Position numbers and translations under genes: made by a program | Shown here: positions 17,167-48,699 of the stretch, piece by piece | How positions within the stretch are numbered: position 1 is the stretch's first letter | Layout: each line of letters opens with the position of its first letter | DNA from: a virus | Lineage: Duplodnaviria; Heunggongvirae; Uroviricota; Caudoviricetes | DNA: 64,000 bases | IMG/VR virus record: IMGVR_UViG_3300038603_000024 | Coordinates: 1-64,000 of that record | Direction: 5' to 3' (one strand) | The notes under the pieces: generated by a model | The model's database searches: none | What the model was told of the DNA's origin: nothing | Seen by the model: the letters and a program-made list of their open reading frames with translations, nothing else

Positions 17167-17180
17167 CTTAACATGTTAAG
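17167..17180. promoter_or_regulatory. Palindromic motif CTTAACATGTTAAG, copy 1, upstream of the Met-rich and basic-protein genes.
   Basis: Exact 12-bp palindrome TTAACATGTTAA. One of at least five near-identical copies, all 5' of leftward virion transcription units. Confidence 0.45.
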
Positions 17181-17200
17181 CTTTAGGAATCTAGTCCGTG

Positions 17201-17353
17201 CTACTTACGCTTCTTAGCAGACTTAGCCGCCTGCTTAAACGCCTTGGCTGTCGGGTATCCCTTTTCGCCCGGTCGTTTGGGACGCTTACCTGCTTTGCGC
17301 CGAGAATGTATATTTTCGTAAAGCCCCGGCTTCTTCTTCGTGCTTTTAGCCAT
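17201..17353 (-). CDS. Lysine-rich basic miniprotein A (50 aa, MAKSTKKKPGLYENIHSRRKAGKRPKRPGEKGYP...KSAKKRK).
   Basis: Hand-translated, below the track cutoff. It is co-directional with three other basic miniproteins. Confidence 0.45.
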   Translation of the reverse strand: MAKSTKKKPGLYENIHSRRKAGKRPKRPGEKGYPTAKAFKQAAKSAKKRK

Positions 17354-17373
17354 CTGCTAAGTCCTTGATTTTG

Positions 17374-17685
17374 CTACCATTTCGTGACCGAAGACCAGTG
17401 CGCCGCGCTCATTTTGCCCTTTGCAATGTTCTTTGCATGGCGCGCTTTGAAGGAAGCCCGTCGCTTTTTAGCTGCTTCGCTCTCGCCTTTCTTGGGTGGA
17501 GACCCTTTGACGTTTTGTTGGCCGAAGCGGATCGTCTTGATTTTTGACCCTTCTTTTGCTACGACAACGTGCGACTTGGTGGGGTGGTTGGGGGTGCGCT
17601 TCGGTTTGTTCACGCCCTTAACCCCCGCCCGTTTAACTGCGGCCTTGGCTTTGGCAGCGACGGATTGCTTGCCCTTCTTAGCCAT
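17374..17685 (-). CDS. Lysine-rich basic miniprotein B (103 aa).
   Basis: ORF in the track with AKKAK-type repeats. Its start overlaps the stop of miniprotein C (TAATG). Confidence 0.5.
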   Translation of the reverse strand: MAKKGKQSVAAKAKAAVKRAGVKGVNKPKRTPNHPTKSHVVVAKEGSKIKTIRFGQQNVKGSPPKKGESEAAKKRRASFKARHAKNIAKGKMSAAHWSSVTKW

Positions 17686-17810
17686 TATTTTTTCTTCTTC
17701 ATCTTTGGCTTGGCTTTGATCGGGCCTTTGCCTTTGACTGCCGGGGTCTTGCGCTTGACCGGCTTGGTGGTGGATTTGCGGTACTGAACGCGCGGGGTCT
17801 GGGTTGCCAT
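17685..17810 (-). CDS. Lysine-rich basic miniprotein C (41 aa, MATQTPRVQYRKSTTKPVKRKTPAVKGKGPIKAKPKMKKKK).
   Basis: Hand-translated. It fills exactly the gap between B and D. Confidence 0.4.
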   Translation of the reverse strand: MATQTPRVQYRKSTTKPVKRKTPAVKGKGPIKAKPKMKKKK

Positions 17811-17811
17811 G

Positions 17812-17985
17812 TTACTTCTTCCTTCTCTTGCGCTTTGCGCCTGCCTCGCTTAGTGCGATGGCCTTGGCCTGCTTTGCGCTTGTGACCTTTCGGCCTGAAC
17901 TGGATTTAAGGGTGCCGCTTTTGTACTCGCGCAGCACCTTGCTGACTTTAGCAGACTTGGCGGCTTTTGTCCTTGGCTTGGGCAT
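17812..17985 (-). CDS. Lysine-rich basic miniprotein D (57 aa, MPKPRTKAAKSAKVSK...AKRKRRKK).
   Basis: ORF in the track. I took the internal start, which has an AAAGGTGA ribosome-binding site. Confidence 0.45.
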   Translation of the reverse strand: MPKPRTKAAKSAKVSKVLREYKSGTLKSSSGRKVTSAKQAKAIALSEAGAKRKRRKK

Positions 17986-18035
17986 TATTTCACCTTTCTG
18001 GCGTTGGGGGCGCATTGGCACCATTTGTATTTAAC

Positions 18036-18893
18036 TCATATGTATGACTTTATTTTAACTCTATAGTTCAACAGGGTTGCACTTGATGTGAAACCTCCAT
18101 TTGTAGACGAACTGAATACATCTCCAACCTTTACGTCAAACAAGTATCGCTCGTTACTTCCTTGAATGAAGTTCCCTAATTCTTGCTTCAGCGCGTGGTT
18201 CTTGGTCGTACCATTTATTAGCACCCCGTTTAGAGTGTCTTGGCAGCTAACATTGCTATACGTCCCATCTGTATTTTGCGGGTCTACCCTGAATTGCGTT
18301 GTTACCTCAACTTGACCATTAAAATTGAACGTCAAGTCTCCGGACGACTGCGTAATAAGCCCAGTGAAGTCTGTGCTAGTTATTGAAAGGTTTATATCTG
18401 TTGAGTCTGTGTTTACGGATGAAGTTAAGTCTGCAGATGTAATATACTCAACGCGGCTGCGAACAGACCACGCCGCAACGGTTTGGGAGTTTACGACATC
18501 CTTGTATACGGCGAAGGTGATAGACTTATTCGGCTTGATCCTGATAGTAGATAGCCCCTGAAAAAATGAGCCGCCGCCGGATATTGATACGACAATATCA
18601 TTATCTGAGTTGCCGCTTGATGACAGGAAATCAGACAGGTTAGCGACCCTGACCTCTTTAACCACACCGTTCTCTGGCACATCAGATGGGTCTGGCAGAG
18701 TCAGTGAGAAATCGCCGGTCCCCGTCCCAGTGTCTATTGCAAGCTCTCTCGGCAAGCTGCTTCCGGAGAGAGCAGTATTGGTCCCGGTATTTATATACTG
18801 GAGATCGTGGTATCCAGACGATATAAGCTTCCCGTTTCCATCTATCTTAAAGTGGTTTTCGTGGACTCTATCGTCGTGCAAGTGGGTAGGCAT
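18036..18893 (-). CDS. Tail or fiber-associated structural protein (285 aa, Ser/Thr/Gly-rich).
   Basis: Composition and position at the distal end of the tail gene block. Confidence 0.4.
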   Translation of the reverse strand: MPTHLHDDRVHENHFKIDGNGKLISSGYHDLQYINTGTNTALSGSSLPRELAIDTGTGTGDFSLTLPDPSDVPENGVVKEVRVANLSDFLSSSGNSDNDIVVSISGGGSFFQGLSTIRIKPNKSITFAVYKDVVNSQTVAAWSVRSRVEYITSADLTSSVNTDSTDINLSITSTDFTGLITQSSGDLTFNFNGQVEVTTQFRVDPQNTDGTYSNVSCQDTLNGVLINGTTKNHALKQELGNFIQGSNERYLFDVKVGDVFSSSTNGGFTSSATLLNYRVKIKSYI

Positions 18894-21800
18894 TATGTCA
18901 CCTGTGTTGTTATAAGGGTTCCGTCAGTGCCAACGCTGAGACGCCAGCGTGTATTGTCTGAGGCAACTAGAACAAGCTCTTCGCCCAAGTTTACCGAATC
19001 GCCTTGGCTGTTTTCTGCCCTCAAAGCCACGTCAAAGGCCAGCACGGTCTCATGCGTGTAGGTGGTGCTAAACAGACCAAACTGCGGCAGGGTCGCGTGG
19101 TCTTCTAAGTTTTGCACCACGCTTGGGATTGGCTCAAAGTCTTCATAGTTGAAGAACCTCGCATTCTCATCCGCAACGGAGATATGACCGCCCAGCCCCG
19201 CGCCAAAGTAGGTTTCATATGTCCGGTTGGTGTCGATCTCCGCCCGGTCGCCAGAGATGAACAAGTTGCCATTGCTCCCCGGCTTGAAAGCGAAGACCTG
19301 CCATCCGTCAACATTGGTTCCCTCAATCTCCACCTGCCGGGTTGTTCCTGTGGTTGCGGGAACTGTGCGGGTTTCGGTGTAGCTCAGAATAACCTGAATG
19401 TCGTTGATGGTAGCCACCCCCCCGTTCACTCGCTCTGTGACGCTTACGCGGATCTCATGCTGCCCGTCTCCATTACGGTTCGGGTAGTATCGCGCCTCAA
19501 CAAACGCCTGCTCACTGCCGTCATTAAGGGTGAAGTTTGCGAAGGTCTCAACCGGTCCACCCACTCCAGTAAGCGTTGCCTGCCCTGCGCCGAACAGGTT
19601 CCCGTTGGCGTGGCCGCGATAGTCAATCGTCACCGTTGTTGATGCCGTCGGAATGTTACGGGTGAAGAACAGCTCATCCGCTTCTGGGACAGGAATGCCA
19701 TTCTGGAAAGTCAGCGTCGGGATCGTCTGCCAAATACCAGGGCCAGAGACTTGAGTCGCAGGCGCAGGATAGATGGTGTCAGTGATGGTGCTTGCTGGTT
19801 GTCCCGGAACTCGAACATTGACCGAGTAAGAGCCATTGACATAGCTGATCAGGTCTCGCCCAGTGGTGCCATCAAATGCTGTGACATAGCTCGCTTGGTT
19901 GGCGGGTTGTCCCGGCGGGATGTACAACAGCTTGCGCCGGACTTGATCTCCTGAAAGCTCAGACAGTGGCCGCGAGTTCTTTAAGCCGCCGCTTCCCGCG
20001 TTTTCATTCGGCTCATAGAACACTGATTGCGTTGTGCTGGTGGATCCGGAAATCTGGTTGTTATAGGTGGTCGGGTTGACTGTTGGGGTGCTTTCCTCAG
20101 TGACGCTGGTGTTGTTGTCCAGAACATCAATAACGGCATCTGGCAAGCTCAGCGCGGCGTGTTCCAGCTCTGCGTCAATCCGGTCAAGCGCCTCCTGATG
20201 GTTTGCAAGCTCATTGGTCCATGCACCCACCTGTTCAACCGTGGTGCGCTCCACCTCAAACACATGGCCAGAAGTGAGGCCCGTCAGCAGGTAGACGAAG
20301 TAGGTAACGCCGCCCTCTGTGAAGCTCTCGATCACGTCAACACCAAGCTGGCCCTGCATCAACGGAGTGACCGTATCAGCCGTGACGTTCTTCAAGACGT
20401 ACAGGTGCGGCTGAGCAGTTGCAACGAACATTCCGGTGTTGTTGTTTGTGAACTGCGGGTTGTTCGCCGGAACCTGAGTAAAGTCGCTAAGCTGGGTCGG
20501 GTAAGCCCCGGTGCCGTCATAAGTCGCGAACCGCGCGCTTGGGTCAGGCTCGGAGTGAGTGACGCTGATGATCGGCTCCAAGCGGTCCTCAATCTCAGCA
20601 TATGTCACGCCTTGATCGGGGATGGCTCGGTTTAGCTTCTCTTGCACAGATGCAGAGAGGCGCTCCTCTGGCAGGTTTTGCACGTTCTGCGTGACGTCAA
20701 CGGTGCTGGGGTCAAGCTGGAAGTGCTGCTGGACCTCAGTCAACCACACCTCAATCGTCGCTAGGAACGGGTAGTTGATCGATTGGGCGCGCTGATAATG
20801 GCGATAGGTGCTGTTTGTGAACGTCGCATCGTCAACAAACGTGAAGTCATTGGCAAGGTTCCAACGCTCTACAATGGCGCCGTCAGTATCCCGCAGAATG
20901 ACGTCAATCGTGCTTTCCGGGTGGCCGGTGATGAAGTTCGGCGAAACGCCAACGGTCATGTAGCTGTTGAACAGGTTATGACCAAGTTGAAAGCGCAGTT
21001 GTGCGTCTCTGTTTTCACGCCCGCCGACATAGCGGTAATTATCGCCTGCGCGTGGGTTGTTTGGATCGGTCGATGGTGTGATGAATGGGGCGGTCGTAAG
21101 TGGGTTCTCAGACAGCCATACAACGCCCTCAGAACCAAGTTGAGAAATCAGGCCCGCATCAACCCGGTTGTCGATCTCTGTGATTTCTTCATGGAAGTTG
21201 GAGGCCGCGCGGCTGGTGCGCTCAAAGCCCGTCCGCTCCCAAACAAACCAGTTGTCGCCGTCCGTCCAGCTCGTGAATGCATCGGCATCCCAGACCACGT
21301 AGTCGCCATCATTGATAACGCGGTCACTCACGCCAGCGTCAAGCAGGCCCTGCCGCAGGGTTCCATCGTTCGGGTTGGACCCGGCAACGCGGAACGCATA
21401 GCCTTTCAGTACCTCCCCGGCACCCGGCAGAAGCGATCCGTCCGCGTTATTCCAAGTGCGAGTTTGCAGAACCACCTCGCCAAAGGTGGCAACCGGATCT
21501 GTTGCCTGCTGGACAGAGATCCGCTCAATAGGTTGGATAGACCCACCAATGCGCTCAACCCTATAGGTTACAGACATGCCCTGCCCAAGCGTGGTGGGGA
21601 ACGCCCCCTCAGCGAAACCGACACTCACATTTGGCGCGGTGATTGTCAGTCGGTTGCGGGTGATGAACGTGCTGCTACCGCCGTTGTACTCAATCGTGCG
21701 AGTAAGAACCTCAGCAAGTCCACGGGCCGCAAGATCATCAAACGCCAGCGCCAGCTCTGTTGGGTTAGGGAACTCAAATGTGTAACGCCCATTTGGTTGT

Positions 21801-22249
21801 CCGCGCGCGCCAGACAGAGTTAGGCTTTGCCTACCTCCATACCAGATGTCTTGGTTTCCGCCGGGAACAACGTAGTTAGGAAAGAAGCTGCCGGTAAACG
21901 TGACAGGTTCAGAACCAAGTCCGGTGCCGTCAACGAGATCCAACGCTTCACGAACGGTATCCACAGAGGCGGCGCTAAAGATCCCCCGTGCATTGGCGTT
22001 GTCATACGAAACCATTGCGGCTGACACTGTACCAGGGGTGCCACCGTCTAGCTGGAAGCCATCAATAACAGCCGCCATCGCCTGTACTGATGCGCCAGAG
22101 GACAGACTCGCCAATGTTCCGGTAAGTGAGCCAGTGTCCAGCTGTATTTCGTCTGCATATCCTAACGTACCACTAGAGGACGTAAGCGTTACGGGAATAG
22201 AGCGATCAACCATGGAACACCTCGTAGTCGATAGGGGCTGTGCGCCCAT
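18893..22249 (-). CDS. Large tail protein (1118 aa), a host-specificity or fiber-type protein.
   Basis: Size and position. No catalytic motif recognised. Confidence 0.45.
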   Translation of the reverse strand: MGAQPLSTTRCSMVDRSIPVTLTSSSGTLGYADEIQLDTGSLTGTLASLSSGASVQAMAAVIDGFQLDGGTPGTVSAAMVSYDNANARGIFSAASVDTVREALDLVDGTGLGSEPVTFTGSFFPNYVVPGGNQDIWYGGRQSLTLSGARGQPNGRYTFEFPNPTELALAFDDLAARGLAEVLTRTIEYNGGSSTFITRNRLTITAPNVSVGFAEGAFPTTLGQGMSVTYRVERIGGSIQPIERISVQQATDPVATFGEVVLQTRTWNNADGSLLPGAGEVLKGYAFRVAGSNPNDGTLRQGLLDAGVSDRVINDGDYVVWDADAFTSWTDGDNWFVWERTGFERTSRAASNFHEEITEIDNRVDAGLISQLGSEGVVWLSENPLTTAPFITPSTDPNNPRAGDNYRYVGGRENRDAQLRFQLGHNLFNSYMTVGVSPNFITGHPESTIDVILRDTDGAIVERWNLANDFTFVDDATFTNSTYRHYQRAQSINYPFLATIEVWLTEVQQHFQLDPSTVDVTQNVQNLPEERLSASVQEKLNRAIPDQGVTYAEIEDRLEPIISVTHSEPDPSARFATYDGTGAYPTQLSDFTQVPANNPQFTNNNTGMFVATAQPHLYVLKNVTADTVTPLMQGQLGVDVIESFTEGGVTYFVYLLTGLTSGHVFEVERTTVEQVGAWTNELANHQEALDRIDAELEHAALSLPDAVIDVLDNNTSVTEESTPTVNPTTYNNQISGSTSTTQSVFYEPNENAGSGGLKNSRPLSELSGDQVRRKLLYIPPGQPANQASYVTAFDGTTGRDLISYVNGSYSVNVRVPGQPASTITDTIYPAPATQVSGPGIWQTIPTLTFQNGIPVPEADELFFTRNIPTASTTVTIDYRGHANGNLFGAGQATLTGVGGPVETFANFTLNDGSEQAFVEARYYPNRNGDGQHEIRVSVTERVNGGVATINDIQVILSYTETRTVPATTGTTRQVEIEGTNVDGWQVFAFKPGSNGNLFISGDRAEIDTNRTYETYFGAGLGGHISVADENARFFNYEDFEPIPSVVQNLEDHATLPQFGLFSTTYTHETVLAFDVALRAENSQGDSVNLGEELVLVASDNTRWRLSVGTDGTLITTQVT

Positions 22250-22718
22250 TGTTGGTTTGCATTAGCAAGTTGTATAGCTGCCCGTTGATTGTTCTGGCGC
22301 TATTGGTGCGCTGGAATGTGTCTAGGATTGGGATTCCCAAGGTCTTCTCCGTTATCCTCGTGATTGGCCTATCGGCTGGCTCTAGAATCCCTAGGATCTC
22401 AGTGGCTGGAAAGTTGACAGAAATCTCATAGCTTGACCCCGGCTGTTGGACATCAACGCTTGTCAGGTTGGCTAGGTCCACTGTCGCAAAGTCATTTGTC
22501 GCCCGGATGGCGTAGTATGCCAGCTCGTCGGGCTGCGTAGTCCTGATCTGGGTTGTTAGGGTGTTAGACATGATCGTTTGCCCGCCAGATGTTGTGCCGC
22601 GAATCTGGAACGTCACCTGACCGTCAGAGCTTGTATCAATGCCCGTCAGAGCGATCTGGACTGTATGCGTCCCGTCAGATGATGGCACAGTGATTATCTT
22701 GTCATCACCACCTGTCAC
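22206..22718 (-). CDS. Virion structural protein (170 aa).
   Basis: Sits within the contiguous leftward structural operon. Confidence 0.35.
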   Translation of the reverse strand: MTGGDDKIITVPSSDGTHTVQIALTGIDTSSDGQVTFQIRGTTSGGQTIMSNTLTTQIRTTQPDELAYYAIRATNDFATVDLANLTSVDVQQPGSSYEISVNFPATEILGILEPADRPITRITEKTLGIPILDTFQRTNSARTINGQLYNLLMQTNNGRTAPIDYEVFHG

Positions 22719-22834
22719 GACAAGGTTCAGCGCTGTAATCTGGTCTGTCGCCTGAGTGGTAAATGTGAACTGCGCATTCTCATTCAGGTTTGTGCCTGTC
22801 TCGACGCGGGATGGAACTGTGGAACTCAGCCCGC

Positions 22835-27259: not shown

Positions 27260-27277
27260 ATTACCTTTGACCTTTTG

Positions 27278-32924: not shown

Positions 32925-32938
32925 CTTAACATGTTTAG
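32925..32938. promoter_or_regulatory. Palindromic motif copy 2 (CTTAACATGTTTAG), about 35 nt upstream of the tail-spike start.
   Basis: Matches the consensus TTAACATGTTAAG with one substitution. Confidence 0.4.
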
Positions 32939-32951
32939 CAATTGAATGCTA

Positions 32952-35456
32952 TCACCTAAACCCGCCGCCGGTCGCAACAATGCTAGATGGTGGGAGCCAG
33001 TACTCCTGATTATTTTCACGGCGAACCCGTTTTTCTGCGCGGCGCAGGTAGCCTGGATTAATTGTCTCTTGAAGTTGGAACCAGACAAGATAATCCATCG
33101 CTGACTTGGCATAGAACAGGTTGGCAAATGGCGTGTTGCTTTTGACAAGCCGTAGAAGATCACCGCTAATGTCGTCCTCTGCCCCGGTCACAATTCCTCG
33201 CGCGCGCTGCAAAAGGTCAATGGCCTCTGTTGCTGTGCCGATTGTTGGGCCAGCCAGAGTGTCCAGTGTGCCGCCACCGAAACGGTTAGCCTCACCGAAC
33301 AAGAAGTCACCGTAGATCCCAAGTCCGCCACCCTGCAACAGAGCAGCCACGAATGTCTCTGCGCTCATCTCGCGCGTCTCTCGCCCCTTTAGGATCTCTT
33401 TCGTTTGCATGACGAAATAGCCGAGAACGGTTGTGCCTACAATAGCATTGGCTAGGCCAGCATTGGCTCCGATTCCCTTGCCAAGTTGTTCACGAAACGT
33501 CCGCGACCCTGTTCCGTAAACCTGACGTCCGACAACTTTTGTAAGGCCAGTGATGCCAAAGCTTTTGAATTGCGTCGCAAACCTGATTGCTTCTCCAGCC
33601 ACAGTGCCGGGCCTGTAGCCCTGACGCAGGATTGCCCTTTCCCGCGCGCCCGCAGATGGAACCGCAAAGTCTGCCTCAGCCGACATAAGCGTAAAGAAGT
33701 TGTCAGATGCAGCATCTAGAACACGTTGATTTACCCCAGACCCTTCTAGCTGCCGGATATCACCGGGCATAATGTAGGAACGACCGTCCTCAGCCTCTCG
33801 TGTAGATTGGCGAATTACGTTCCACTGCGCCTCATCAATGCCGTAGATTCGCAGGAGGCGCTGCATGTCCTCTGGCAATTCATTAACCGTCCTGCCTGCG
33901 TTCATCGCGAAGTCACGGCTAATCATAAACGTAACGCCGCGTTTGTTTGCGTCGGACCAAGGCCCCAGAAGGTTCATCTTGAAGAAAAACGCCATCGCCT
34001 TCGAGGTGGCTCCTGGAAGATCATCAGACGCATTGGCGCGACTCATAAAATCGCCAAGCTGCCCCTCAAGACCTGCTCCAAGAAGATCTGCAAACTCGCG
34101 CTTTTCTCCCCCTTGAAGGCCCTCAATAGATGCTGTAAACGCATCCTGCCAAGCATCACCGAGACTGCGACCCTGATAAATTCGGTTAGTCGCCGTGAAT
34201 GCAATATCTGATGTGGCGGAGATTACAGCGCCACCAAGTTTTGCCATCGTCTGGATAGCGCGAATTGCAGAAGAAACGCGAGCGACCGTCGTGCCAGCGC
34301 CAAGATTGATATCCCCTGTCACTTCGTCCATTCGGTTTTGAATGTATCGGGGAACGCCCTTGCCAGCCTCAAGCTCGAACTTTTCCAGCTTTGCTTCATT
34401 GCCACGGTATTTCTCACGCGCAATTTTGACAACCCTTTCAAGCATTGCCTGCGGGTTAGTGCCGAAGTTTGAAATAATCGCAGTAGACCTAGCGTTTCGG
34501 TTCAAGTCTTGATGGAACGCCTCACGCAGAGAGCCGGTCCCAAACTGGCGGTCATAGTCAAACCAGTCGTCAACGGTCTTAAACTCCAGAACCCGCGCCG
34601 CTGCATCTTTCTTGGCTAGGTTGCCCGGACCCTTAAACGCGCGCTCAATATCAGACACGTCTTTGTCTAGGCGAATGCCAGTCTTTAGAGAGATGTAAGT
34701 CTCTGACAGGAATTTCTCAATTTGCTCAGGGCGAACACCCATCGCTTCATAATCAAGCTTTTGACGGACTGCATCTTTCCATTCTTTCTCCCCCGCAACA
34801 GCCATTTTTGCAGGATCGTGGCTTTGACGAACAACCCTGCCGGACTTTTCACGAATATGCCCGCCTTCTCGGTTGAGCCGCCGCACAGATGTGACCTGAT
34901 ACTTCTGCATGATCTTGGCAATTTCCATAGCCTCCCGGCTGACGTTAACGCCGCGCGGTTCTCGCCTATTTAGATCACCCAAAGCGTTAGCAACCTCCCG
35001 CTCGAAGTCGCCACTCATTTTGTTGTATTGCGTGTGCAGATTGGCTTTCTTCAGGTCATGAATAAGACCACCAGCATAAGAGTTCATCAAGCCATTGGTG
35101 ATTGCATCAACTGACCTCTGCGCCCCCTCAAACGGAGCATTGACGCCACTGATAGCAGCTTCCAAGCCAAGAGCAGGATTGTCCGTCATCTGGTCTGCGC
35201 GATTCATCAGGTCCAGAAGCTTATTTTCAATGACGATGTTTTTCAGCCGATTGCGGCGTTCAATCAGCGCGGCCTCTTCAGCTTGGCTGGCAATGATCTC
35301 CCCCTCTCGCAACAGGGCGGACTCAACGCTTTCCAGATTATCACTGGATTGGGCACGTTGCTTCCTGTTGTTGAGGTCTGCAAAGATATCCTCAATCTCA
35401 TCATCATCTAGCCGACCATTGTTAACTTGGTCAGCAATATTCAAACAATCAGCCAT
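32952..35456 (-). CDS. Large internal virion / ejection-type protein (834 aa).
   Basis: Gene order between the capsid genes and the tail spike. No enzymatic motif found. Confidence 0.4.
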   Translation of the reverse strand: MADCLNIADQVNNGRLDDDEIEDIFADLNNRKQRAQSSDNLESVESALLREGEIIASQAEEAALIERRNRLKNIVIENKLLDLMNRADQMTDNPALGLEAAISGVNAPFEGAQRSVDAITNGLMNSYAGGLIHDLKKANLHTQYNKMSGDFEREVANALGDLNRREPRGVNVSREAMEIAKIMQKYQVTSVRRLNREGGHIREKSGRVVRQSHDPAKMAVAGEKEWKDAVRQKLDYEAMGVRPEQIEKFLSETYISLKTGIRLDKDVSDIERAFKGPGNLAKKDAAARVLEFKTVDDWFDYDRQFGTGSLREAFHQDLNRNARSTAIISNFGTNPQAMLERVVKIAREKYRGNEAKLEKFELEAGKGVPRYIQNRMDEVTGDINLGAGTTVARVSSAIRAIQTMAKLGGAVISATSDIAFTATNRIYQGRSLGDAWQDAFTASIEGLQGGEKREFADLLGAGLEGQLGDFMSRANASDDLPGATSKAMAFFFKMNLLGPWSDANKRGVTFMISRDFAMNAGRTVNELPEDMQRLLRIYGIDEAQWNVIRQSTREAEDGRSYIMPGDIRQLEGSGVNQRVLDAASDNFFTLMSAEADFAVPSAGARERAILRQGYRPGTVAGEAIRFATQFKSFGITGLTKVVGRQVYGTGSRTFREQLGKGIGANAGLANAIVGTTVLGYFVMQTKEILKGRETREMSAETFVAALLQGGGLGIYGDFLFGEANRFGGGTLDTLAGPTIGTATEAIDLLQRARGIVTGAEDDISGDLLRLVKSNTPFANLFYAKSAMDYLVWFQLQETINPGYLRRAEKRVRRENNQEYWLPPSSIVATGGGFR

Positions 35457-41506: not shown

Positions 41507-41510
41507 CTAG

Positions 41511-42008
41511 TTAGCCTCCATACCTGTAAGGGCCGCTAGGCGCTGTTGCCCCGCCACCGCCACTTCCTCCAAATCTCTGAAATGCAGACTTAGCGCCTGC
41601 ACTGCCCGCGATCTCTCCGATACCACCAAGTAAAGACCCAAACGCACTAACCTTGCCCTGCTTTCTAGCCACTTGGCCTCTATACCTTGCGCCCTGCGCT
41701 GCTCCACGCCCAGCCGACAACTCAGTAGCCGCCGCTCGCTCTGTCTCTGCTGCGGTTTCACCGAACAACCTTACAACAGATGGGTCTGCCGCGCCACCTT
41801 GCGCCGCCGCAATAGCCCTTTGTCGGGACTCCAGAAGCGCCCCCTCTTTACGTCGCTCAAGCGCCCTGCGCTGGGACTGTGCCTCAATTTCACGGGCCTC
41901 AGCTTCAGCCTGTTGCTGCTGTGCCTTGCCAGCACTTAGAGCGCCTGCGGTGCTAACCACCGTACTTGCGAGCGCCGATCCCAGAGCAATAGCCTCTAGA
42001 CCTGTCAT
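41511..42008 (-). CDS. Gly/Ala-rich internal virion protein (165 aa).
   Basis: Low-complexity Gly-rich C-terminus, coupled to the downstream gene. Confidence 0.35.
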   Translation of the reverse strand: MTGLEAIALGSALASTVVSTAGALSAGKAQQQQAEAEAREIEAQSQRRALERRKEGALLESRQRAIAAAQGGAADPSVVRLFGETAAETERAAATELSAGRGAAQGARYRGQVARKQGKVSAFGSLLGGIGEIAGSAGAKSAFQRFGGSGGGGATAPSGPYRYGG

Positions 42009-42397
42009 TGTTTTTCTCCGTGTTTTTCTGCTCGCCAGATCCAGACCTGCCGCCCTGCTTCTTCCCTGTCCGTTGGCTTGAACCCAAGACGGGACAGGAA
42101 CTCACTTGCACGTGGAATGCGTTTGTCGCAGCTTGTCACCACTTCATCACATCCGCGAGATTTCATCTCATTGATTAGCCGAAAGGCGTATTTGTAAACA
42201 GAGGGTTTACGTGCCCATTTGCGCAGATCCAGAAACGCGACAACTTCACCAGCCTCATTTGCATAAACGCCGCCCATGCCAACAATCTGATTGCCAATCT
42301 TTGCAACCAGCCCCTCCCAAGGGTTTTGCAGGCGAGCGCCGTAGAACTGGAACATGTCCCGATCTGTTGCTTCTGATACAGTGAAGTGCTGCCCCAT
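42005..42397 (-). CDS. Hypothetical virion-module protein (130 aa), possibly with an acetyltransferase-like fold.
   Basis: ORF in the track. Weak GNAT-like impression only. Confidence 0.3.
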   Translation of the reverse strand: MGQHFTVSEATDRDMFQFYGARLQNPWEGLVAKIGNQIVGMGGVYANEAGEVVAFLDLRKWARKPSVYKYAFRLINEMKSRGCDEVVTSCDKRIPRASEFLSRLGFKPTDREEAGRQVWIWRAEKHGEKQ

Positions 42398-43074
42398 TAG
42401 ATCCGGCCCTGACGTGTGCTAATAGATCCGCCAAGAGCTGTCCGTTGACGATTCTGACGGACGCCAAACCCACGCTGTGCCCGGTTCCAACTGCCGCTGC
42501 GAACCCGTGCCTCTTTCTCATCACGCGCATCACGGCTCTTAGCCTTGGCTAGGCGCATCCGGGCTTCTCTCTCAATCTTATCCCTGTCAGTGGATGACTG
42601 GTTGAGCCGCTGGACAATATCCAAAGCAAGCGCTGCGCTGATGTATCGGGCGAACAGGTGCGACCATGCTGCAATCCCCGCCTCTTCCGCAAAGTCAGTG
42701 GAGATGTATTCGAGATAGAGCGTATCAGTGTCAGAGTGCAGAAGACCTGCGCTGTCCTTAAACAGATCCTCAAACTCATAGACATAAGCGTCCCGGATAT
42801 CAGGATACTCAGACGCCGCAATAGTAGCGATCCAGTCGTCAGGCTTTTGGAATGCGAACTGATACCCAATGGCGGGTGTTGCTGCAGGGTCAGCGTTGAT
42901 TTGAACGGTCTTGATTGCAAAGTTCCACGGCGTCAATGAAAGCGCATCCAACACCACATCGGTGAAGGATTCATTCAAAGCCTGTACTTGCGGAATGTTG
43001 TCAGTGAGGGCTGCAATTGGCTGTGATCCAATGAGCCTCAAAGCGTCGTTATATACTGAAAGGCGAGTTGCCAT
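42397..43074 (-). CDS. Putative head-tail adaptor or neck protein (225 aa).
   Basis: Position downstream of the capsid gene. Confidence 0.35.
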   Translation of the reverse strand: MATRLSVYNDALRLIGSQPIAALTDNIPQVQALNESFTDVVLDALSLTPWNFAIKTVQINADPAATPAIGYQFAFQKPDDWIATIAASEYPDIRDAYVYEFEDLFKDSAGLLHSDTDTLYLEYISTDFAEEAGIAAWSHLFARYISAALALDIVQRLNQSSTDRDKIEREARMRLAKAKSRDARDEKEARVRSGSWNRAQRGFGVRQNRQRTALGGSISTRQGRI

Positions 43075-43118
43075 GCGTGAACCTCGGACGTTTGTTTCCA
43101 GTAGTATACACGCAATCA

Positions 43119-43132
43119 GTTAACATGTTAAG
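43119..43132. promoter_or_regulatory. Palindromic motif copy 3 (GTTAACATGTTAAG), about 50 nt upstream of the 43074 start.
   Basis: Exact match to the core palindrome. Confidence 0.45.
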
Positions 43133-43181
43133 CGGAAAGGATACAGACACCCTTCCCGCTCATCTCATTGGTCTGCGCTGC

Positions 43182-43667
43182 TTAGAGTGCTAGTTCTTTG
43201 GCGCGTTCTTCAGCCATAGCTTTGGACGTAAAGCCGTATTCCATGACTTCTTTCGACGCCTTATTGACAACGCGCCACTTGTGAGCGCCACCCCAAGTCA
43301 CTTCAAGACCTTCGGGAAGCCCATCCTCGCCAATCTCATTGGTCGGGCCGCTGCCTTCTTCCAGCTCATCAAAGTACTCATCAGCATCCGGCGCAGCATA
43401 CACGTTTAGAATCCGAATGTGAGCTTGGAAATTGTCAAATGCCAAGACGCGCAGGCGAACATCAAGTTCTTTACAGTCCGACAGAATGCTAAGTTCCATG
43501 CCTTCGCGAAAAGAGTTGAGATAGTTCGCGAAATACTGGGGATGCATGATTTCTTTGAGGGTGGTTCCTGCTTCCGGCCACAGCGCCATGCGGGCAATCT
43601 TGTAATCTGCTGGTTCGGAGCGTCCGCCGCCAAGTTTGCGGATATGCTTTTTGGCTTGTTCGGTCAT
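43182..43667 (-). CDS. Virion protein (161 aa).
   Basis: Context only. Confidence 0.3.
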   Translation of the reverse strand: MTEQAKKHIRKLGGGRSEPADYKIARMALWPEAGTTLKEIMHPQYFANYLNSFREGMELSILSDCKELDVRLRVLAFDNFQAHIRILNVYAAPDADEYFDELEEGSGPTNEIGEDGLPEGLEVTWGGAHKWRVVNKASKEVMEYGFTSKAMAEERAKELAL

Positions 43668-43731
43668 TTCTTCGGTTCCCTAAACTAAATAAAGGTGGGC
43701 AAAGCGGGAGCCGAAGCCCCCGCCAAGTATC

Positions 43732-44043
43732 TTAGTCAGTGTCAGTGACGCTGATTGCAGTGCCGTCAGTCAGGTCTGCAGAGCCGTCGGCGGCGATAGA
43801 AGCAACCACCATCAACTGTGCAGCCAGAACCGGGCCGGTGCGGGTATACTGGTCAGTGAACGAGGTCCACTGGCGCAGGGTCACGAGGTCGCCCACGCGC
43901 ATACCCTTTTCATCTGCATCGGTGATGTAACCAGCAACGCGAGCGGTTGCCGGAGCATCTTCACCGTCAAGCAGCCAGTGCTGCCAGTTTTGGCCGCTAA
44001 AGCCGCTCTCGATTACCGAAAGACCGTTTGGAATATAAACCAT
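43732..44043 (-). CDS. Small capsid-associated or decoration protein (103 aa).
   Basis: Immediately downstream of the capsid gene. Confidence 0.3.
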   Translation of the reverse strand: MVYIPNGLSVIESGFSGQNWQHWLLDGEDAPATARVAGYITDADEKGMRVGDLVTLRQWTSFTDQYTRTGPVLAAQLMVVASIAADGSADLTDGTAISVTDTD

Positions 44044-44057
44044 AACTTACCCTTTCC

Positions 44058-44906
44058 TTACGCGATGGCCTGAGTGTCATCGTGGATGATCTGCAGGACG
44101 CCGGGCTGCTGAAGCAGACGTGCACCCTGGAAGATCGTGTGGCGGGCATAGGAGTAGTCCTGCTCACCATCATAACCAACGTTGACGTGGATCATGTCGT
44201 TGTTGACCGCGTGACCAACTGCACCGCGAGCAAACGCATAACACTGAGCGTTGTTGCCGCCGATGTTAGGCAGGCCAGTGTGCGGCATGTGAGTTGCGCC
44301 AGCCCAGCGAACGGGGCGTTCTTTACCAGCAACACCACCAGCCAGAGGCTTTTCATCCACGTAGTCCGCGCTAGTGAACTCATCAAAGGTCTTGATGCGC
44401 GCCCAAGCTTTCGGTGTCCACAGGATGGTAATGTCGTCCGAAGAGTAGACGTCCTGCTCGTTCAGCTCAGAGATAATGTCAACCACGTTACCGAAGGTCA
44501 GGGTGATTGCGTTACCGTTGTTGAACTGGTTGGTTGCGGTCGAGAGAGCGTCATCAATGATGATCTGGTCAATCTCACGCGCGGCGGTCAGTGCGCCAGC
44601 CTGTTGCATCGCCATACGCAGATCGGACTGCGAGGTGAAGATGTTGAAGCTGGACTGGGTTTCCAGAGAGTGGAATTCTTCCAGAGGCACGTTGACCTGC
44701 GAGTCGGTACGCTGGCGGGACGGGATAAGGCCGTTAACGCCACGACGGACCATGCGAGGTGCAGAGCCTTGAATCGGGAAGACAGCGGTGTCGCCTTTAA
44801 AGACGAGTTCGCGGGTTACGGCGTCTTTCAGGTAGGTCTCGCCGCGCTGGAACTGCAGAACCCATTCGTCTCGGTACTGCTGTTCTACGATCTGATAACC
44901 GGACAT
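44058..44906 (-). CDS. Major capsid protein (282 aa).
   Basis: It follows the scaffolding gene, has a long 5' UTR with the conserved motif, and is of a size typical for a major capsid protein. Confidence 0.55.
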   Translation of the reverse strand: MSGYQIVEQQYRDEWVLQFQRGETYLKDAVTRELVFKGDTAVFPIQGSAPRMVRRGVNGLIPSRQRTDSQVNVPLEEFHSLETQSSFNIFTSQSDLRMAMQQAGALTAAREIDQIIIDDALSTATNQFNNGNAITLTFGNVVDIISELNEQDVYSSDDITILWTPKAWARIKTFDEFTSADYVDEKPLAGGVAGKERPVRWAGATHMPHTGLPNIGGNNAQCYAFARGAVGHAVNNDMIHVNVGYDGEQDYSYARHTIFQGARLLQQPGVLQIIHDDTQAIA

Positions 44907-45040
44907 AGGTTATCCTCCATAGTGTTTGATATAACGATGTGGGGTTGGTCGCAGTTTCTCTTGGGTGGCCGCAGATGCGGGGCAAGACAAAGCGAATGCG
45001 CGGGGCCGAAAAGACGGGGTAGCCGCGTTATGCAAATAAG

Positions 45041-45056
45041 ATAACATGTTAAGTAT
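45041..45056. promoter_or_regulatory. Palindromic motif copy 4 (ATAACATGTTAAGTATTAC), about 140 nt upstream of the capsid gene.
   Basis: Shares the extended 15-mer CATGTTAAGTATTAC with copy 5. Confidence 0.45.
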
Positions 45057-45149
45057 TACGACGCAACCCTATGGGGTGTTAAGATTTCACAAAGAAAAAC
45101 CCCGACACTTGGCCGGGGTCTTCTTCAATGTTCAGCTATGTAAAGTGGC

Positions 45150-46301
45150 TTAGAGCTTGCCGAGTTTCGCCAGCTTTTCGTTGATTTCTCGGATCTCCAT
45201 TTGCACCCGGTCAGACTTGTATTCTTCCTTGTCTGTCAGGATGAGACCCATCAACTCTTTCTTGCGATCCTCAAGACCTCGCATACCAGCGGCGGTATCG
45301 CCAGCATACATTGCCACGCCGCCCAGTTGGTCAACAGCAGGCCCAGCCAGAAGGCGCAACAGGTTAGCGTTGTCCATCAGATAAGACCCGTCAGCCATAC
45401 GCGCAGACCGCAGTTCCTTCGCGCCATCACCGCCAATCGTGTTATCCAGCAGCGCCCGGATAGCATTCAGGTTGCCATCGTATTCCTTGCCCCACTCATT
45501 GGTCAGGGATGCGACTGTTTCAGCCTGGGTTTCGTCGGCAGTCTGGTTCATCGCCTGCCGCTGGCTTTCGGCAAAGGACTCGTACCACTCAATAGTTTTC
45601 TGCGCATACTGAGGCGGCACATGGTTTTCATGCATGAACTCGCGGTAGGTATCCAGAACCGGCGCGTCTGCATCGGAGGATTCAAAGCTTTCGCCAAACT
45701 CTACCTTATAATCAGATACGTCCTCTGGAATGTTCAAGCGCTTGCGATATTCAGCCAGCTCTTCATCCGTGGGATTGTCTGGCAGTTCAGGTGCCATCTG
45801 GTTTTCTTTTTGCAGGCGGCTAATCTCTTGGCGTTGCTTTGCAAATGCATTGGCTAGGGCTTGTGCGGAACGGTAGCGTCCGAGAAGCTTCTGCAGCATC
45901 TCGTTATCACCAGCCATGAAGTCACGAATGTCGGTCCACTCTAGGGACGGCGCTGCTGCCTCTTCAGGTTCAGCTTCTTCCGCCTTTGATTCGGCTTCTT
46001 CCTCGGATACTTGTTCTTCCGTTTCAGCTTCCGGCTCCTTTTCAGGTTCAGCTTCAGTCGTATCTTCAAGTGTGCCGGTATCGTCGCCTGTGTCAACAAC
46101 CTTATCAGCTTCAGCCGCTTCGGATTCTACTGCCTCAGCTTCCGGCTCAGGCTCTGGTGCTTTCTGTGGTTGGTTCAGCAGGGATGCGCGCTCAGGTGCC
46201 GCCTCTGGTGCTGGGGCGGTTTCAGTGGATACAGGTGCTTCTGTCGAAACCTGTGCTTCTGCCTGCGGTGCGTCCGCTACTGCTTGTGTTGCTTCTGTCA
46301 T
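45150..46301 (-). CDS. Scaffolding protein (383 aa, highly acidic, Ala/Glu/Pro-rich N-terminus, helical C-terminus).
   Basis: Composition and its position between the portal and capsid genes. Confidence 0.55.
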   Translation of the reverse strand: MTEATQAVADAPQAEAQVSTEAPVSTETAPAPEAAPERASLLNQPQKAPEPEPEAEAVESEAAEADKVVDTGDDTGTLEDTTEAEPEKEPEAETEEQVSEEEAESKAEEAEPEEAAAPSLEWTDIRDFMAGDNEMLQKLLGRYRSAQALANAFAKQRQEISRLQKENQMAPELPDNPTDEELAEYRKRLNIPEDVSDYKVEFGESFESSDADAPVLDTYREFMHENHVPPQYAQKTIEWYESFAESQRQAMNQTADETQAETVASLTNEWGKEYDGNLNAIRALLDNTIGGDGAKELRSARMADGSYLMDNANLLRLLAGPAVDQLGGVAMYAGDTAAGMRGLEDRKKELMGLILTDKEEYKSDRVQMEIREINEKLAKLGKL

Positions 46302-46326
46302 GTGTCTTACCTCAAACTAAAGAAAC

Positions 46327-46746
46327 TTAGGATTTTGATGATGGGAGTTTGTTGGCGGGTTTACGGCGTGGCCCTTTAATTTCGGGCTTGGGCGCAACGC
46401 TGGATCGTTCAGTTGTGATCCGCTGAATTGTCACGTCCGCAAAGTCGCTGTGGTGTAGGATCTGCGAACCAACATGCCGCATTCCTTGGCAGAAGTCGGA
46501 TTCCCTACGTCCATCCTCGCCATCCAAATAAAAGCCATTGTCAGGCAGTCGGGCGATGCTATAAACGATTGCGTCAATAGCTTGCTTCTGCTGCTCTGGG
46601 TTTGCGATGCCCTTCCGACAATTGGCGATTGCCCGAACATCGGAAATGCTGAGTTGCCCCACAACGCGAACACGCACAGGGTCATCAACAACCGATACCG
46701 GCTCTGAAGGTCGTCTGAGAGTTGGTTTCTGTTTCGTCATATTCAC
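46327..46746 (-). CDS. Hypothetical head-module protein (139 aa).
   Basis: ORF in the track, between portal and scaffold. Confidence 0.3.
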   Translation of the reverse strand: MNMTKQKPTLRRPSEPVSVVDDPVRVRVVGQLSISDVRAIANCRKGIANPEQQKQAIDAIVYSIARLPDNGFYLDGEDGRRESDFCQGMRHVGSQILHHSDFADVTIQRITTERSSVAPKPEIKGPRRKPANKLPSSKS

Positions 46747-46764
46747 CCCTAAAACAAAATTGGG

Positions 46765-48456
46765 TTACTGGATTCCACCGCCCCCGGTGACTTGCTGGAG
46801 CTGCTGAGCCACGCCAACAGCTTCACTTGCGACTTGCGCGCCTTGCTGGAGCTGCTGAAGGGCCTGCTGCTGTTGTTGCAGTTGCGCTTCGTCCTGCTTG
46901 ATCTTGTCCGCTTCCTCTTTGGTGAACAGCCATTCGGGGTTAGCTGTAACCTTGAAGGTGTCACGGAACATCCGGTCAACGTTCACATTAGCAACCACGC
47001 CAGGGTCAAGCTGTGCCATCGCCCCGATAATCGCCATAGACTCCTCAAACTTGCCAACAACCTGCTGTTCCCGTGCATCCCTCAGAGGGTTCTGGAACTC
47101 AAAGCTGGTATCCATATCCTGCAAGATTTCAGGGAAGCTCTCAGCGGTGCCGTATGCGCCAAGTTTGATCAGGCGATTGACGACAAGATCCAGCTCAGGC
47201 GCGATGACCTCGTTTTCCAGAGGCTCAAAGATTGGCAGGGTGCTACGGATGAACTCCTGCTGAAGAATCCGAACCTCTGTCGCTGTCCTGTTGCGGGTGT
47301 CAGGAAGGTTGATCTTGTCCAGATAGAAGCTGGATGTCAGATCTGCCACCTTGCGATCCATGAGCGCTTGCCCGACGCCGGGGTTCTTGCCCAGATCCAG
47401 AGGCACAAGAGGCGCGCCAAGTCGCTCATCGTACTGCGCGTCAACGTAAGTGACCCCGCCAGCAGTGACATCAATCGGGCCTTGGATAGCCTCAGACGTT
47501 GCAATCAGCGGCGGCTCAGTTGCCTTTTCCGTTGCCTCAATAATCGAGACAGCCATACGCTGAATGAGACGCGCGTCAGGCAGGGCAGTCATAGCAGCAG
47601 GGGAGTAGCCATAGGACCACCCCTGAACAGTGCGCCAGCGGGAAACGATATAGGGGAATACGGTCTCAGGCTCTTCTTTCAGAACCGTGCCATCTTCAAA
47701 CAGATAGACCGATGCGAACTCTGTGCCTTTCGGGAAGCTCTTGCGCATAACCGGCTCATACTGGTCAACAGGCAAGGCCACGTGGCGAACATCAAACTTG
47801 TCGTTACGGTCTCCCCGCTTCAGCGCGCCCTTAACCGCACTTGGCAGGTTTCTCTCTCCGAATTTCTTCTCAATACCACCCGCTGTCATCTTCATCTTGC
47901 GGTGCAGGTGGTCAACAATACCCCAGTCATTCTCCATCCAAGCGCAGTCTTTCAGGTGCCACGTCTTGAAGAAAATGCCGTTGTTGTCTTTGTTATTCGT
48001 TACGGATTTGACAGAGCAGCCGAATACCGCAAAGTCAATATCAGCCTCTGAGTTGGCCCGCGTGTATTTAGCGTCTGCCGCATAGATAGCCGCGCGGGTA
48101 ATGCGGGTCATCGCGTCAAGTTTACGCCGTGCCTCAGTGTCGTTCTTCACCTCTTCGTCGGGAACGGTGACAGCAAACCAATCCTGGTCAGCAGGGCGCA
48201 ACATAGTGTTAAACAGGTTGGCTAGGTCTCGTGCGACCCTGACAGTATCAGCGTCTGACAGGTGGTCTGCAAATTCCTCGCCAAGTGTGATTTCGTTGGT
48301 GAAGTCTGCCTTCTCTGGAGCAAACCAGTATGCCAGTTCTTGATTCAACTGGTCGAAGTTTTGCTTGTCGGAAAACAGCTTGTCGCCGAGAGCGATCAAT
48401 TCACTCCCGACCTTGCACGGATAGCCGCGTGTATGGTTCTCGTTATTGTCAGCCAT
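46765..48456 (-). CDS. Portal (head-to-tail connector) protein (563 aa).
   Basis: Size and gene order upstream of the scaffold and capsid genes, with a Gln-rich C-terminal tail. No diagnostic motif; assigned by synteny. Confidence 0.55.
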   Translation of the reverse strand: MADNNENHTRGYPCKVGSELIALGDKLFSDKQNFDQLNQELAYWFAPEKADFTNEITLGEEFADHLSDADTVRVARDLANLFNTMLRPADQDWFAVTVPDEEVKNDTEARRKLDAMTRITRAAIYAADAKYTRANSEADIDFAVFGCSVKSVTNNKDNNGIFFKTWHLKDCAWMENDWGIVDHLHRKMKMTAGGIEKKFGERNLPSAVKGALKRGDRNDKFDVRHVALPVDQYEPVMRKSFPKGTEFASVYLFEDGTVLKEEPETVFPYIVSRWRTVQGWSYGYSPAAMTALPDARLIQRMAVSIIEATEKATEPPLIATSEAIQGPIDVTAGGVTYVDAQYDERLGAPLVPLDLGKNPGVGQALMDRKVADLTSSFYLDKINLPDTRNRTATEVRILQQEFIRSTLPIFEPLENEVIAPELDLVVNRLIKLGAYGTAESFPEILQDMDTSFEFQNPLRDAREQQVVGKFEESMAIIGAMAQLDPGVVANVNVDRMFRDTFKVTANPEWLFTKEEADKIKQDEAQLQQQQQALQQLQQGAQVASEAVGVAQQLQQVTGGGGIQ

Positions 48457-48475
48457 TAGCAGCCCCGTGTGTTAA

Positions 48476-48661
48476 TCAGCCGAGAGTGGTTCGGCTAAAC
48501 TCTGCGGCACCCTGAGACGGGCGATCTACAAGAGTTGTTTGGCGGGTTCCGCTCTGGGATACTGCCCGCTGTTGCGCGCGACGGCGAACCTTCTCAAGCT
48601 CTGCCTCATCCGGCAGCGGCGCGGGCTTGGGAGGTGGTGGAGTTTTGAAAAGACCAGACAT
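48476..48661 (-). CDS. Small Pro-rich protein (61 aa).
   Basis: Starts about 20 nt downstream of motif copy 5. Confidence 0.3.
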   Translation of the reverse strand: MSGLFKTPPPPKPAPLPDEAELEKVRRRAQQRAVSQSGTRQTTLVDRPSQGAAEFSRTTLG

Positions 48662-48679
48662 AAGATTTCCCGAATTTAC

Positions 48680-48699
48680 TTGTCATGTTAAGTATTACC
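48680..48699. promoter_or_regulatory. Palindromic motif copy 5 (TTGTCATGTTAAGTATTACC), immediately downstream of a terminator.
   Basis: The terminator-then-motif arrangement suggests a promoter for the portal and capsid operon. Confidence 0.45.

Follow-up and report, generated by a model that had tools for sequence, protein, structure and literature searches.

Palindromic TTAA-N4-TTAA sites at the 5' ends of late transcription units in a Phaeobacter-linked phage: putative operators of MarR type

The late genes of the tailed phage represented by IMG/VR record IMGVR_UViG_3300038603_000024 carry copies of a short palindrome, TTAACATGTTAA, at the 5' ends of their transcription units. We analyzed positions 1-64,000 of the record (the window), which are part of a genome of ~79.6 to 80.8 kb. 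Six copies were found, labeled S1b, S1, S2, S3, S4, and S5, all read on the transcribed minus strand and all 5' of leftward late units. The palindrome is probably the site at which a dimeric repressor, possibly the host's, sits on the start sites of the virion and lysis genes. A preliminary description had taken the motif for a dimeric activator or repressor site or a phage-specific promoter element, rather than a plain sigma-70 promoter. Its observation is confirmed and extended here, and its interpretation is partly supported; the function, including the transcription start sites, the binding, the sign of the regulation, and the identity and source of the protein, is what we infer from the sequence.

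RESULTS

Copies of the palindrome

With at most one mismatch, the 12-mer occurs five times in the window against 0.11 expected, a count reached in none of 100 shuffles. A 13-mer version with at most two mismatches gives six sites, and three-mismatch matches are at chance level. S1b (16836-16849, TTAACTTGTTAAC; 13-mer 16836-16848) lies 27 nt 5' of the ATG of a 76-aa gene, and S1 (17167-17180, TTAACATGTTAAG; 13-mer 17167-17179) lies 41 nt 5' of the ATG of a 70-aa Gly/Met-rich gene (16914-17126). S2 (32925-32938, TAAACATGTTAAG; 13-mer 32925-32937) is 32 nt 5' of the gene for a 1373-aa tail fiber, S3 (43119-43132, TTAACATGTTAAC; 13-mer 43119-43131) is 44 nt 5' of a 225-aa gene, and S5 (48679-48692, TTAACATGACAAG; 13-mer 48679-48691) is 17 nt 5' of the ATG of a 61-aa gene. 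S4 (45040-45053, TTAACATGTTATC; 13-mer 45040-45052) stands at the start of the ~135-nt leader of the capsid gene (44058-44906). The near-identical copies at the five places listed in the preliminary description were borne out, as was an extended 15-mer, GTAATACTTAACATG, common to S4 and S5; S1b was absent from that list and is an additional copy.

All 12 core positions are kept, and the two dyad halves are equally conserved, an arrangement that suits a dimer and not RNA polymerase (RNAP). The symmetry, previously called perfect, is nonrandom, but only S1 (17168-17179) and S3 (43120-43131) are perfect 12-bp palindromes; the other four copies have one or two mismatches. The 14-bp form of S1, CTTAACATGTTAAG, is also a perfect palindrome, and S2 can be extended to a near-perfect 16-bp one. 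TTAA-N4-TTAA is exact in three copies and off by one or two bases in the other three, and every TTAA-N4-TTAA in the 64-kb window is a motif copy.

No copy overlaps a called gene. Since intergenic DNA makes up 8.8% of the window, the probability that all six would be intergenic is ~4.6e-7, which upholds the earlier placement of the motif in the 5' intergenic regions of leftward units. Its frequency inside coding regions had been named as a point that could refute a regulatory role, and coding DNA of the window holds no comparable copies. A site for a dimeric regulator is the best reading of the motif, a nonrandom dyad restricted to the 5' regions of leftward late units. The copies are dispersed over 32 kb of the late region. 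Every phage promoter has a single copy; the nearest two, S1 and S1b, are 331 bp apart and belong to different units.

A seventh copy with one mismatch, TTAACACGTTAA, lies in the ~15.6 kb outside the window (L274 14330-14341), where it overlaps codons 3 to 6 of a 141-aa gene, right after the Shine-Dalgarno (SD) sequence and ATG. The CACG/CGTG variant of TTAACACGTTAA also recurs in the viral contigs L072 and L011, described below. The genome parts beyond the window are represented by L274 11121-20933 and L277 11228-20600.

A second perfect 12-bp palindrome of another type, TGTTGTACAACA (TGTT-N4-AACA), is found at 17145-17156, 10 nt downstream of S1 in the leader of the 70-aa gene. An apparent TTGGCTTGG repeat was rejected as a counting artifact, a dispersed k-mer due to codon bias.

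Late transcription units

The S1b unit starts with the 76-aa gene and has a muramidase and a holin, the lysis cassette, at its end; the S1 unit encodes the 70-aa Gly/Met-rich protein, and the S2 unit encodes the tail fiber. The S3 unit runs from the 225-aa gene through internal virion/tail proteins, the S4 unit is the capsid gene (PF19821 in relatives), and the S5 unit comprises the 61-aa gene followed by portal and scaffold. The leftward virion units of the preliminary description stand, with small changes of label: the basic proteins lie upstream, not downstream, of S1, and the 383-aa open reading frame (ORF) at 45150-46301 is the scaffold, the true capsid gene being 44058-44906. No relatives of the scaffold protein were found in IMG/VR.

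Four of the six copies follow hairpins, all on the minus strand. Those upstream of S5, S4, and S1b resemble intrinsic terminators, with U-runs, and end 9 to 45 nt before the motif. The hairpin at 48703-48732 (-14.5 kcal/mol) ends 11 nt before S5, in agreement with the terminator reported immediately before that copy. The hairpin at 45090-45123 (-22.2 kcal/mol) follows the scaffold gene upstream of S4, and the one at 16858-16887 (-17.4 kcal/mol, z -3.3) ends 9 to 11 nt before S1b. The fourth, at 43132-43159 (-16.8 kcal/mol, z -4.0), has a 12-bp stem and no clear U-run and ends exactly at the start of S3.

The capsid leader downstream of S4 (44907-45040, minus strand, ~135 nt) contains C-rich blocks (ACCCC...GGCCCC...); the blocks are found again before the capsid gene in three relatives (L001 14936-15170, L002 12943-13107, and L003 12908-13128) and may be a conserved 5'-UTR element.

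Promoter context

A -10-like hexamer, TANNNT, ends 0 to 8 nt upstream of five of the six copies (background, 0.137 per site; P = 2.6e-4), again on the minus strand. An extended -10-like TGgTACTGT (16849-16857) abuts S1b with a gap of 0 nt, TAGATT (17188-17193) is 8 nt upstream of S1, an extended -10-like TGaTAGCAT (32946-32954) is 8 nt upstream of S2, and TATCCT (43138-43143) is 6 nt upstream of S3. TAATAC (45053-45058) abuts S4, with TTAACA 18 nt further upstream, and TATGGT (48697-48702) is 5 nt upstream of S5, where an alternative TGgTAATAC abuts the motif. These hexamers, several of them with the extended -10 TG, argue against the earlier claim that the motif stands in place of a plain sigma-70 promoter. 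If they are -10 elements, the palindrome spans about -6 to +13 and so includes the predicted start site.

Other promoter assignments can be made at two sites. At S3, TTAACA-N17-TATACT (43103-43131) has 10 of 12 matches and is the best sigma-70 match in the region; it takes the left half of the palindrome as its -35 and is syntenic with a terminator-promoter in the relative L003. At S4, the alternative TTGCGT-N17-(TGt)TATCTT places the motif over the spacer and the -10 (overlap, 45038-45046), and this TATCTT aligns with the -10 of the capsid promoter of three motif-free relatives. The register of the palindrome relative to the best promoter match thus varies from site to site, which fits an operator and not a fixed promoter element. 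The syntenic positions in motif-free relatives have plain sigma-70 or extended -10 promoters, and promoters of the extended -10 type TGnTAnnnT are also found at motif-free sites of the phage itself (59263, 24534, 10098, and 52904). On these predicted promoters the palindrome is an addition over ordinary host-type elements and does not replace them.

We considered whether the motif could itself be a core promoter element for host RNAP, with its right half, TG-T-TAAGnT, serving as an extended -10 in a class of late promoters, possibly together with a phage factor. TGnTAnnnT does occur inside S1, S2, and S4, the same type as at the motif-free sites, and the TATCTT inside S4 is the hexamer that aligns with the relatives' capsid promoters. 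The leaders would have workable lengths (at least 10 nt), and single-element phage promoters are known (PMC8948821). On the other hand, TTAACA, the left half, shows conservation no lower than that of the right, and nothing in the contacts of RNAP calls for a dyad. The T at -7 is missing from three of the six internal hexamers (TAACTG, CAAGTA, and TAACTA), and an independent TANNNT stands just upstream of five of the copies. Neither a sigma factor nor an RNAP gene is encoded in the ~80-kb genome, and in marine phages tandem pairs of the 12-mer precede clear -35/-10 promoters by 11 to 100 nt and are therefore not the promoter there. We regard this explanation as improbable. Promoters of a phage RNAP or a phage sigma factor (T7-like, N4-like, or phiEco32 gp36-like) were rejected as candidates, as the genome gave no RNA_pol or Sigma70 family match.

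The distance from S5 to the ATG of the following gene, which is conserved in relatives, limits the models further. With only 17 nt available there is no room for a downstream promoter, and the site must overlap the promoter or the start site; the activator role entertained in the preliminary description fails on this point. Late genes of phages that lack their own RNAP usually need an activator, and in the marine phages the palindrome sits 11 to 30 nt upstream of the -35 (center at about -52 to -62), a typical activator position. In the window, however, -10-like hexamers do not follow the motif at a fixed distance (it is followed by one after 1, 8, or 11 nt, or by none), and transcription from a downstream promoter at S5 or S1b would begin within or at the ORF. 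These distances led us to reject a late activator site, whether in place of the -35, as for P1 Lpa (a palindrome near -22 with a -10), or of class I or II type, as for Mu C and P2 Ogr, and we consider it very improbable.

If the upstream hexamers are -10 elements, the palindrome would form the first ~12 nt of every late mRNA, and it could then act in the 5' leader on translation or stability. Alternatively, it could be a DNA site for packaging, replication, nicking, or methylation: it contains CATG, TTAA, and GTTAAC sites, the phage encodes two DNA methyltransferases, and lambdoid Stx prophages have one copy of GTTAACATGTTAAC in the HNH-terS spacer near cos. An RNA hairpin was rejected, because its stem of 4 to 5 bp would be AU only and the conservation comes without covariation; dyad symmetry is, moreover, a property of DNA. 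Six dispersed copies strictly at 5' gene ends are unfit for cos, pac, or ori, and the strand bias of a nick-type site cannot be defined for a palindrome. Such a post- or extratranscriptional role seems quite improbable.

Similarity to HpaR operators

Binding to TTAA-N4-TTAA is documented by experiment for no proteins but HpaR/MarR-family repressors (PMC7180172), which were not among the candidates of the preliminary description. DNase I footprints of Yersinia HpaR, a MarR-family repressor, cover 15-bp sites with TTAA-N4-TTAA that are "similar to E. coli W," and one of these sites is centered at -8, over the -10, a placement read as RNAP occlusion (PMC7180172). An alphaproteobacterial example, met in full-text articles searched for the 12-mer, is an intergenic TTAACATGTTAAG in Bradyrhizobium (PMC4023998); the gene downstream of it has a quoted N-terminus like those of the HpaR proteins in the genome scan described next.

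In 185,579 species genomes we searched for two exact copies of TTAACATGTTAA 1 to 30 bp apart. Such tandem pairs were found at 35 loci, at 9 of which a MarR-family gene, recognized by HMM, flanks the pair. Among the nine, the proteobacterial pairs sit in the promoter between hpaR and hpaG, hpaE, or hpaH; over the scan as a whole, at least a dozen proteobacterial loci have this arrangement, with examples in Pseudomonas (in L267, for example, the pair reads TTGACActcgTTAACATGTTAAaTATAACgTTAACATGTTAA), Marinobacterium, Marinobacter, Photobacterium, and Steroidobacteraceae. Four regulators of the tandem loci pass the TIGR02337 cutoff for HpaR and are neighbored by HpaG, HpaH, and HpaE equivalogs. 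At hpa loci the box is conserved in alpha-, beta-, and gammaproteobacteria alike. Judged by its sequence, the phage motif is a canonical operator of the HpaR/MarR type.

No cognate MarR-family regulator was found next to the sites or elsewhere in the phage genome with Pfam, PHROGs, an HpaR HMM, or hhalign. Two alphaproteobacterial boxes were compared and rejected. A CtrA box is excluded by its spacing, TTAA-N7-TTAA having no copies in the 64-kb window. The canonical site of CceR, a LacI-family protein of Rhodobacter, has the same half-site, TAACATG, but its GTTA-N4-TAAC is everted relative to the motif. CceR regulates pckA, and a Planktomarina metagenome-assembled genome, from a roseobacter, has an octamer repeat, (TTAACATG)x3 plus TTAA, upstream of pckA (L270 5574-5601).

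Occurrence in other phages

Scans of IMG/VR for exact matches to two 14-mer versions of the motif gave mostly single, chance-level matches; loci with three or more copies numbered 12 out of 115 for the first version and 10 out of 117 for the second. When one mismatch is allowed, 27 loci have three or more copies and can be divided into three groups. A control palindrome matched in composition was found at 120 loci, at none of them in three or more copies. The exact 12-mer is multicopy in at least 22 other viral loci, of lineages unrelated to the phage studied here.

The first group consists of marine podovirus contigs (32 to 40% GC) with TerL proteins 59 to 62% identical to those of pelagiphage HTVC027P, 023Pt_psg01, and DSL-LC04. 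Here the copies are paired, 15 to 31 bp apart, and lie 11 to 100 nt upstream of the -35/-10 promoters. The second comprises L011 and L029, in which the motif lies 5 nt after a TATAGT hexamer. The third is the L072/L049 contig (61% GC), with nine CCTTAACATGTTAAGG copies 9 to 24 nt before start codons. L072 is N4-like; its DNA polymerase shares 44% identity with the one from the cultured N4-like Stenotrophomonas phage StenR_269, a phage with a virion RNAP. In StenR_269 (L281, OR838459.1, 160-24577) there are ten copies of a related palindrome, TTTAACGTTAAA, in the same pre-SD positions as in L072. Most of the StenR_269 copies stand immediately before a Shine-Dalgarno sequence or a terminator, mirroring the nine CCTTAACATGTTAAGG copies, and the palindromes of this lineage may be an undescribed class of promoter or operator.

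BLASTP, phmmer, family clustering, XRE and HpaR HMMs, and hhalign revealed no protein common to the window phage, L072/L049, and the marine loci. The sole protein likenesses to motif-rich phages are weak XRE and Dam-like methyltransferase matches.

Two further settings of the sequence were seen. In lambdoid Stx prophages (many of L121-L237; e.g., L122 3958-3971), the single copy of GTTAACATGTTAAC in the HNH-terS spacer is conserved, and its use looks unrelated. In the marine contigs (L106 7680-7850, L082, L063, and others), arrays of the palindrome are interleaved with other repeats (iteron-like ACGGTCA(T) units and TCGCAGGACGCAGG) and adjoin an element, GGGGGAGGGGG, beside terL; this region may be an origin or terminus.

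Genome, relatives, and host

The ~80-kb genome is nearly unchanged in at least 23 assemblies, and all 24 contigs with the capsid gene, compared for population variation at the sites, collapse to one sequence. No GenBank phage was matched by DNA. The structural genes are podovirus-like, with a T7-type portal less than 30% identical to that of any GenBank phage. Replication and repair genes include a primase, a helicase, SSB, Rad52, an O-like initiator, and a VRR-NUC nuclease; other genes encode a ribonucleotide reductase (RNR), TerL, the two DNA methyltransferases, and an XRE protein. Searches of the ~80-kb genome with Pfam and PHROG found no gene for an RNA polymerase, a sigma factor, or a MarR protein (the HpaR HMM and hhalign were also negative for the last) and none for a DNA polymerase, an integrase, or partition. 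The GapR-like protein has the same sequence as RefSeq WP_333846899.1 of Phaeobacter italicus and shares 85% identity with the GapR of Phaeobacter chromosomes. The host, or at least the source, is accordingly taken to be a roseobacter, probably P. italicus. That a phage lacking DNA polymerase, RNA polymerase, and integrase recurs in at least 23 assemblies and in a P. italicus RefSeq accession raises the question of how it persists, perhaps in a carrier state or as an episome.

The only close relative, L004 (98% identical), has an identical S5 and thus gives no covariation information; its block of terminator, motif, and gene at S5 is identical, though the upstream genes differ. There, at 2480-3000, L004 lacks two genes found between terL and S5, a GmrSD_N/DUF262-like gene (49506-50042) and a 113-aa ORF (48759-49100), a difference (48759-50042) that looks like a moron-type insertion or deletion.

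Among the proteins named as candidate regulators in the preliminary description, the helix-turn-helix (HTH) phosphoesterase (8523-9698) is an SbcD-like DNA-repair exonuclease (PHROG 704, 1.5e-52), to which the sole sigma-r4-like HTH of the genome belongs. The XRE protein has no motif in its own control region, and its homologs do not co-occur with the motif in the 27 other motif-rich viral loci. The RHH-like protein (59856-60059) matched no family, and its promoter is motif free. None of the three was supported as the regulator.

Other features of the genome were noted in passing. TerL (949 aa, 50059-52908, minus strand) and RNR (951 aa, 2821-5676, minus strand) are each split into two homology stretches, and LAGLIDADG matches were found in both genes in identical or related contigs; both probably contain LAGLIDADG inteins. 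A tRNA-Arg gene (anticodon CCT; 14-89, minus strand), on which ARAGORN and Rfam agree, lies at the left edge of the window. Within a tightly packed genome there are two long gene-free stretches, 10050-10978 (929 nt) and 12107-12572 (466 nt), for which Rfam at the gathering threshold gave no match.

DISCUSSION

The explanation we place first is that a dimeric MarR-type repressor, likely an HpaR-like protein of the host, occludes the core promoters of the late genes; we hold it tentatively, at somewhat short of an even chance. According to this explanation, each of the six late units would start from an ordinary host-type promoter, often with an extended -10, and one copy of the palindrome would cover the start site or core promoter (about -6 to +13) or, in one alternative, the -35 and spacer. 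A homodimeric winged-helix repressor of the MarR type would bind the palindrome as its operator and occlude RNA polymerase, or arrest transcription in its first steps, at every late unit at once. The upstream terminators would insulate the units and so make expression depend on each unit's own operator-controlled promoter. Release could come through the repressor's ligand or through titration by replicating phage DNA.

The binder would most likely be a host HpaR-like MarR repressor, an assignment favored because the phage has no MarR gene and because the sequence matches the canonical HpaR box. That the promoters of the phage's own regulators have no copies of the motif also counts for a host binder, as does the conservation of the box at proteobacterial hpa loci. 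A more specific version, in which an HpaR-like sensor of aromatic acids gates the whole late program, lysis becomes conditional on phenolic or aromatic (e.g., algal) metabolites, and unrelated phages have converged on multiple copies of the box, seems rather unlikely to us.

Several observations weigh against a host repressor. Three contigs with 57 to 63% portal identity have no motif copies at up to two mismatches and no equivalent palindrome, so that the motif is lineage specific, and HTVC027P and 023Pt_psg01, cultured relatives of the marine motif-rich phages, have none in the first 50 kb of each genome; a regulator that is encoded by the phage and can be swapped would produce such a patchy presence among relatives. 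L072 and StenR_269, the N4-like pair, have palindromes that are related yet not the same (TTAACATGTTAA and TTAACGTTAA) in matching positions, where they may be read by a phage-determined factor, which weakens the argument for a shared host factor. Host HpaR operators are cooperative pairs, whereas the phage sites are single. Other tandem loci in the genome scan adjoin GntR, XRE, and archaeal HTH genes, and MarR proteins need not be the only readers of the box. Finally, there is no obvious reason for a phage to put its late genes under a host catabolic repressor.

The same operator geometry could instead serve a phage-encoded dimeric regulator of another fold, which would delay the late genes or silence them in a carrier or episomal state, in the manner of mycobacteriophage L5 stoperators or P1 C1 operators. 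The patchiness of the motif and its variation with lineage in the N4-like pair would follow naturally, and the recurrence of the ~80-kb contig in many assemblies and in a P. italicus RefSeq accession could reflect persistence in cultures. The early genes include several for small candidate DNA-binding proteins, among them the RHH-like first early product (59856-60059), a 122-aa protein whose C-terminus is a winged helix (58496-58864), and the XRE protein (6905-7135), and XRE-like genes adjoin the motif in two unrelated viral loci, L019 and L095. Against this, no family beyond the weak XRE and Dam-like methyltransferase matches is shared with the other motif-rich phages, the promoters of the candidate genes have no motif and hence no sign of autoregulation, TTAA-N4-TTAA specificity is documented for none of the candidates, and no integrase or partition genes were found in the genome. 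We consider a phage-encoded binder possible and the less probable of the two.

If the palindrome is a repressor operator, virion production and lysis would be controlled through one protein-DNA interaction in an abundant, Phaeobacter-linked phage that has no RNA or DNA polymerase of its own. If the binder is a MarR-type metabolite sensor of the host, the timing of lysis would be coupled to environmental small molecules via a catabolic repressor of the host. Few host regulators are known to be exploited by phages (LexA, CtrA, and quorum-sensing receptors), and this one would join them; the inducer compound would be a simple handle for a marine model host. Because the exact 12-mer recurs in unrelated uncultured phages, the question is testable in more than one system.

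Comparison with known systems

We know of no description of a MarR-type box on phage late promoters. Parallels in layout are the stoperators of mycobacteriophage L5 and the C1 operators of P1, which are asymmetric and whose repressor genes are known and encoded by the element itself, and the KorA operators of RK2, a 12-bp palindrome, GTTTAGCTAAAC, over the -10 of seven promoters. All have many short operators at promoters or in intergenic gaps, with coordinated silencing by one protein, as proposed here. The phage site differs from the L5 and P1 sites in being a perfect dyad with no cognate gene identified; sites of the L5 stoperator type, which follow the direction of transcription and often lie within operons, were rejected, since those of the phage are symmetric, occur only at the 5' ends of units, and have no identified repressor. 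The late promoters of phiEco32-like phages also consist of a short element just upstream of late genes, often after terminators, and its core, ATGT, is partly similar. Their single element, tAATGTAtA, with starts 6 to 8 bp downstream (PMC8948821), is however not a dyad and requires the phage sigma factor gp36, of which the ~80-kb genome has no counterpart.

The HpaR operators of the hpa-meta (homoprotocatechuate/4-hydroxyphenylacetate) operon form a pair at one catabolic promoter, whereas the phage has six dispersed single sites and no hpaR gene near them or anywhere in its genome. The sequence type is nonetheless the same, TTAA-N4-TTAA, with exact TTAACATGTTAA in hpaR-hpaG promoters, and the HpaR operators lie over the -10 or start site, with repression by RNAP occlusion (PMC7180172), a position also predicted for the phage sites. 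In Alphaproteobacteria phages, CtrA boxes are host regulator sites recruited by the phage (PMC9437464), a use that ties its development to the physiology of the host; the motif described here is not a CtrA box, but the host class is the same. If the binder is indeed the host's, the phage palindrome would resemble these boxes and those of LexA in being the site of a conserved host regulator placed in phage promoters.

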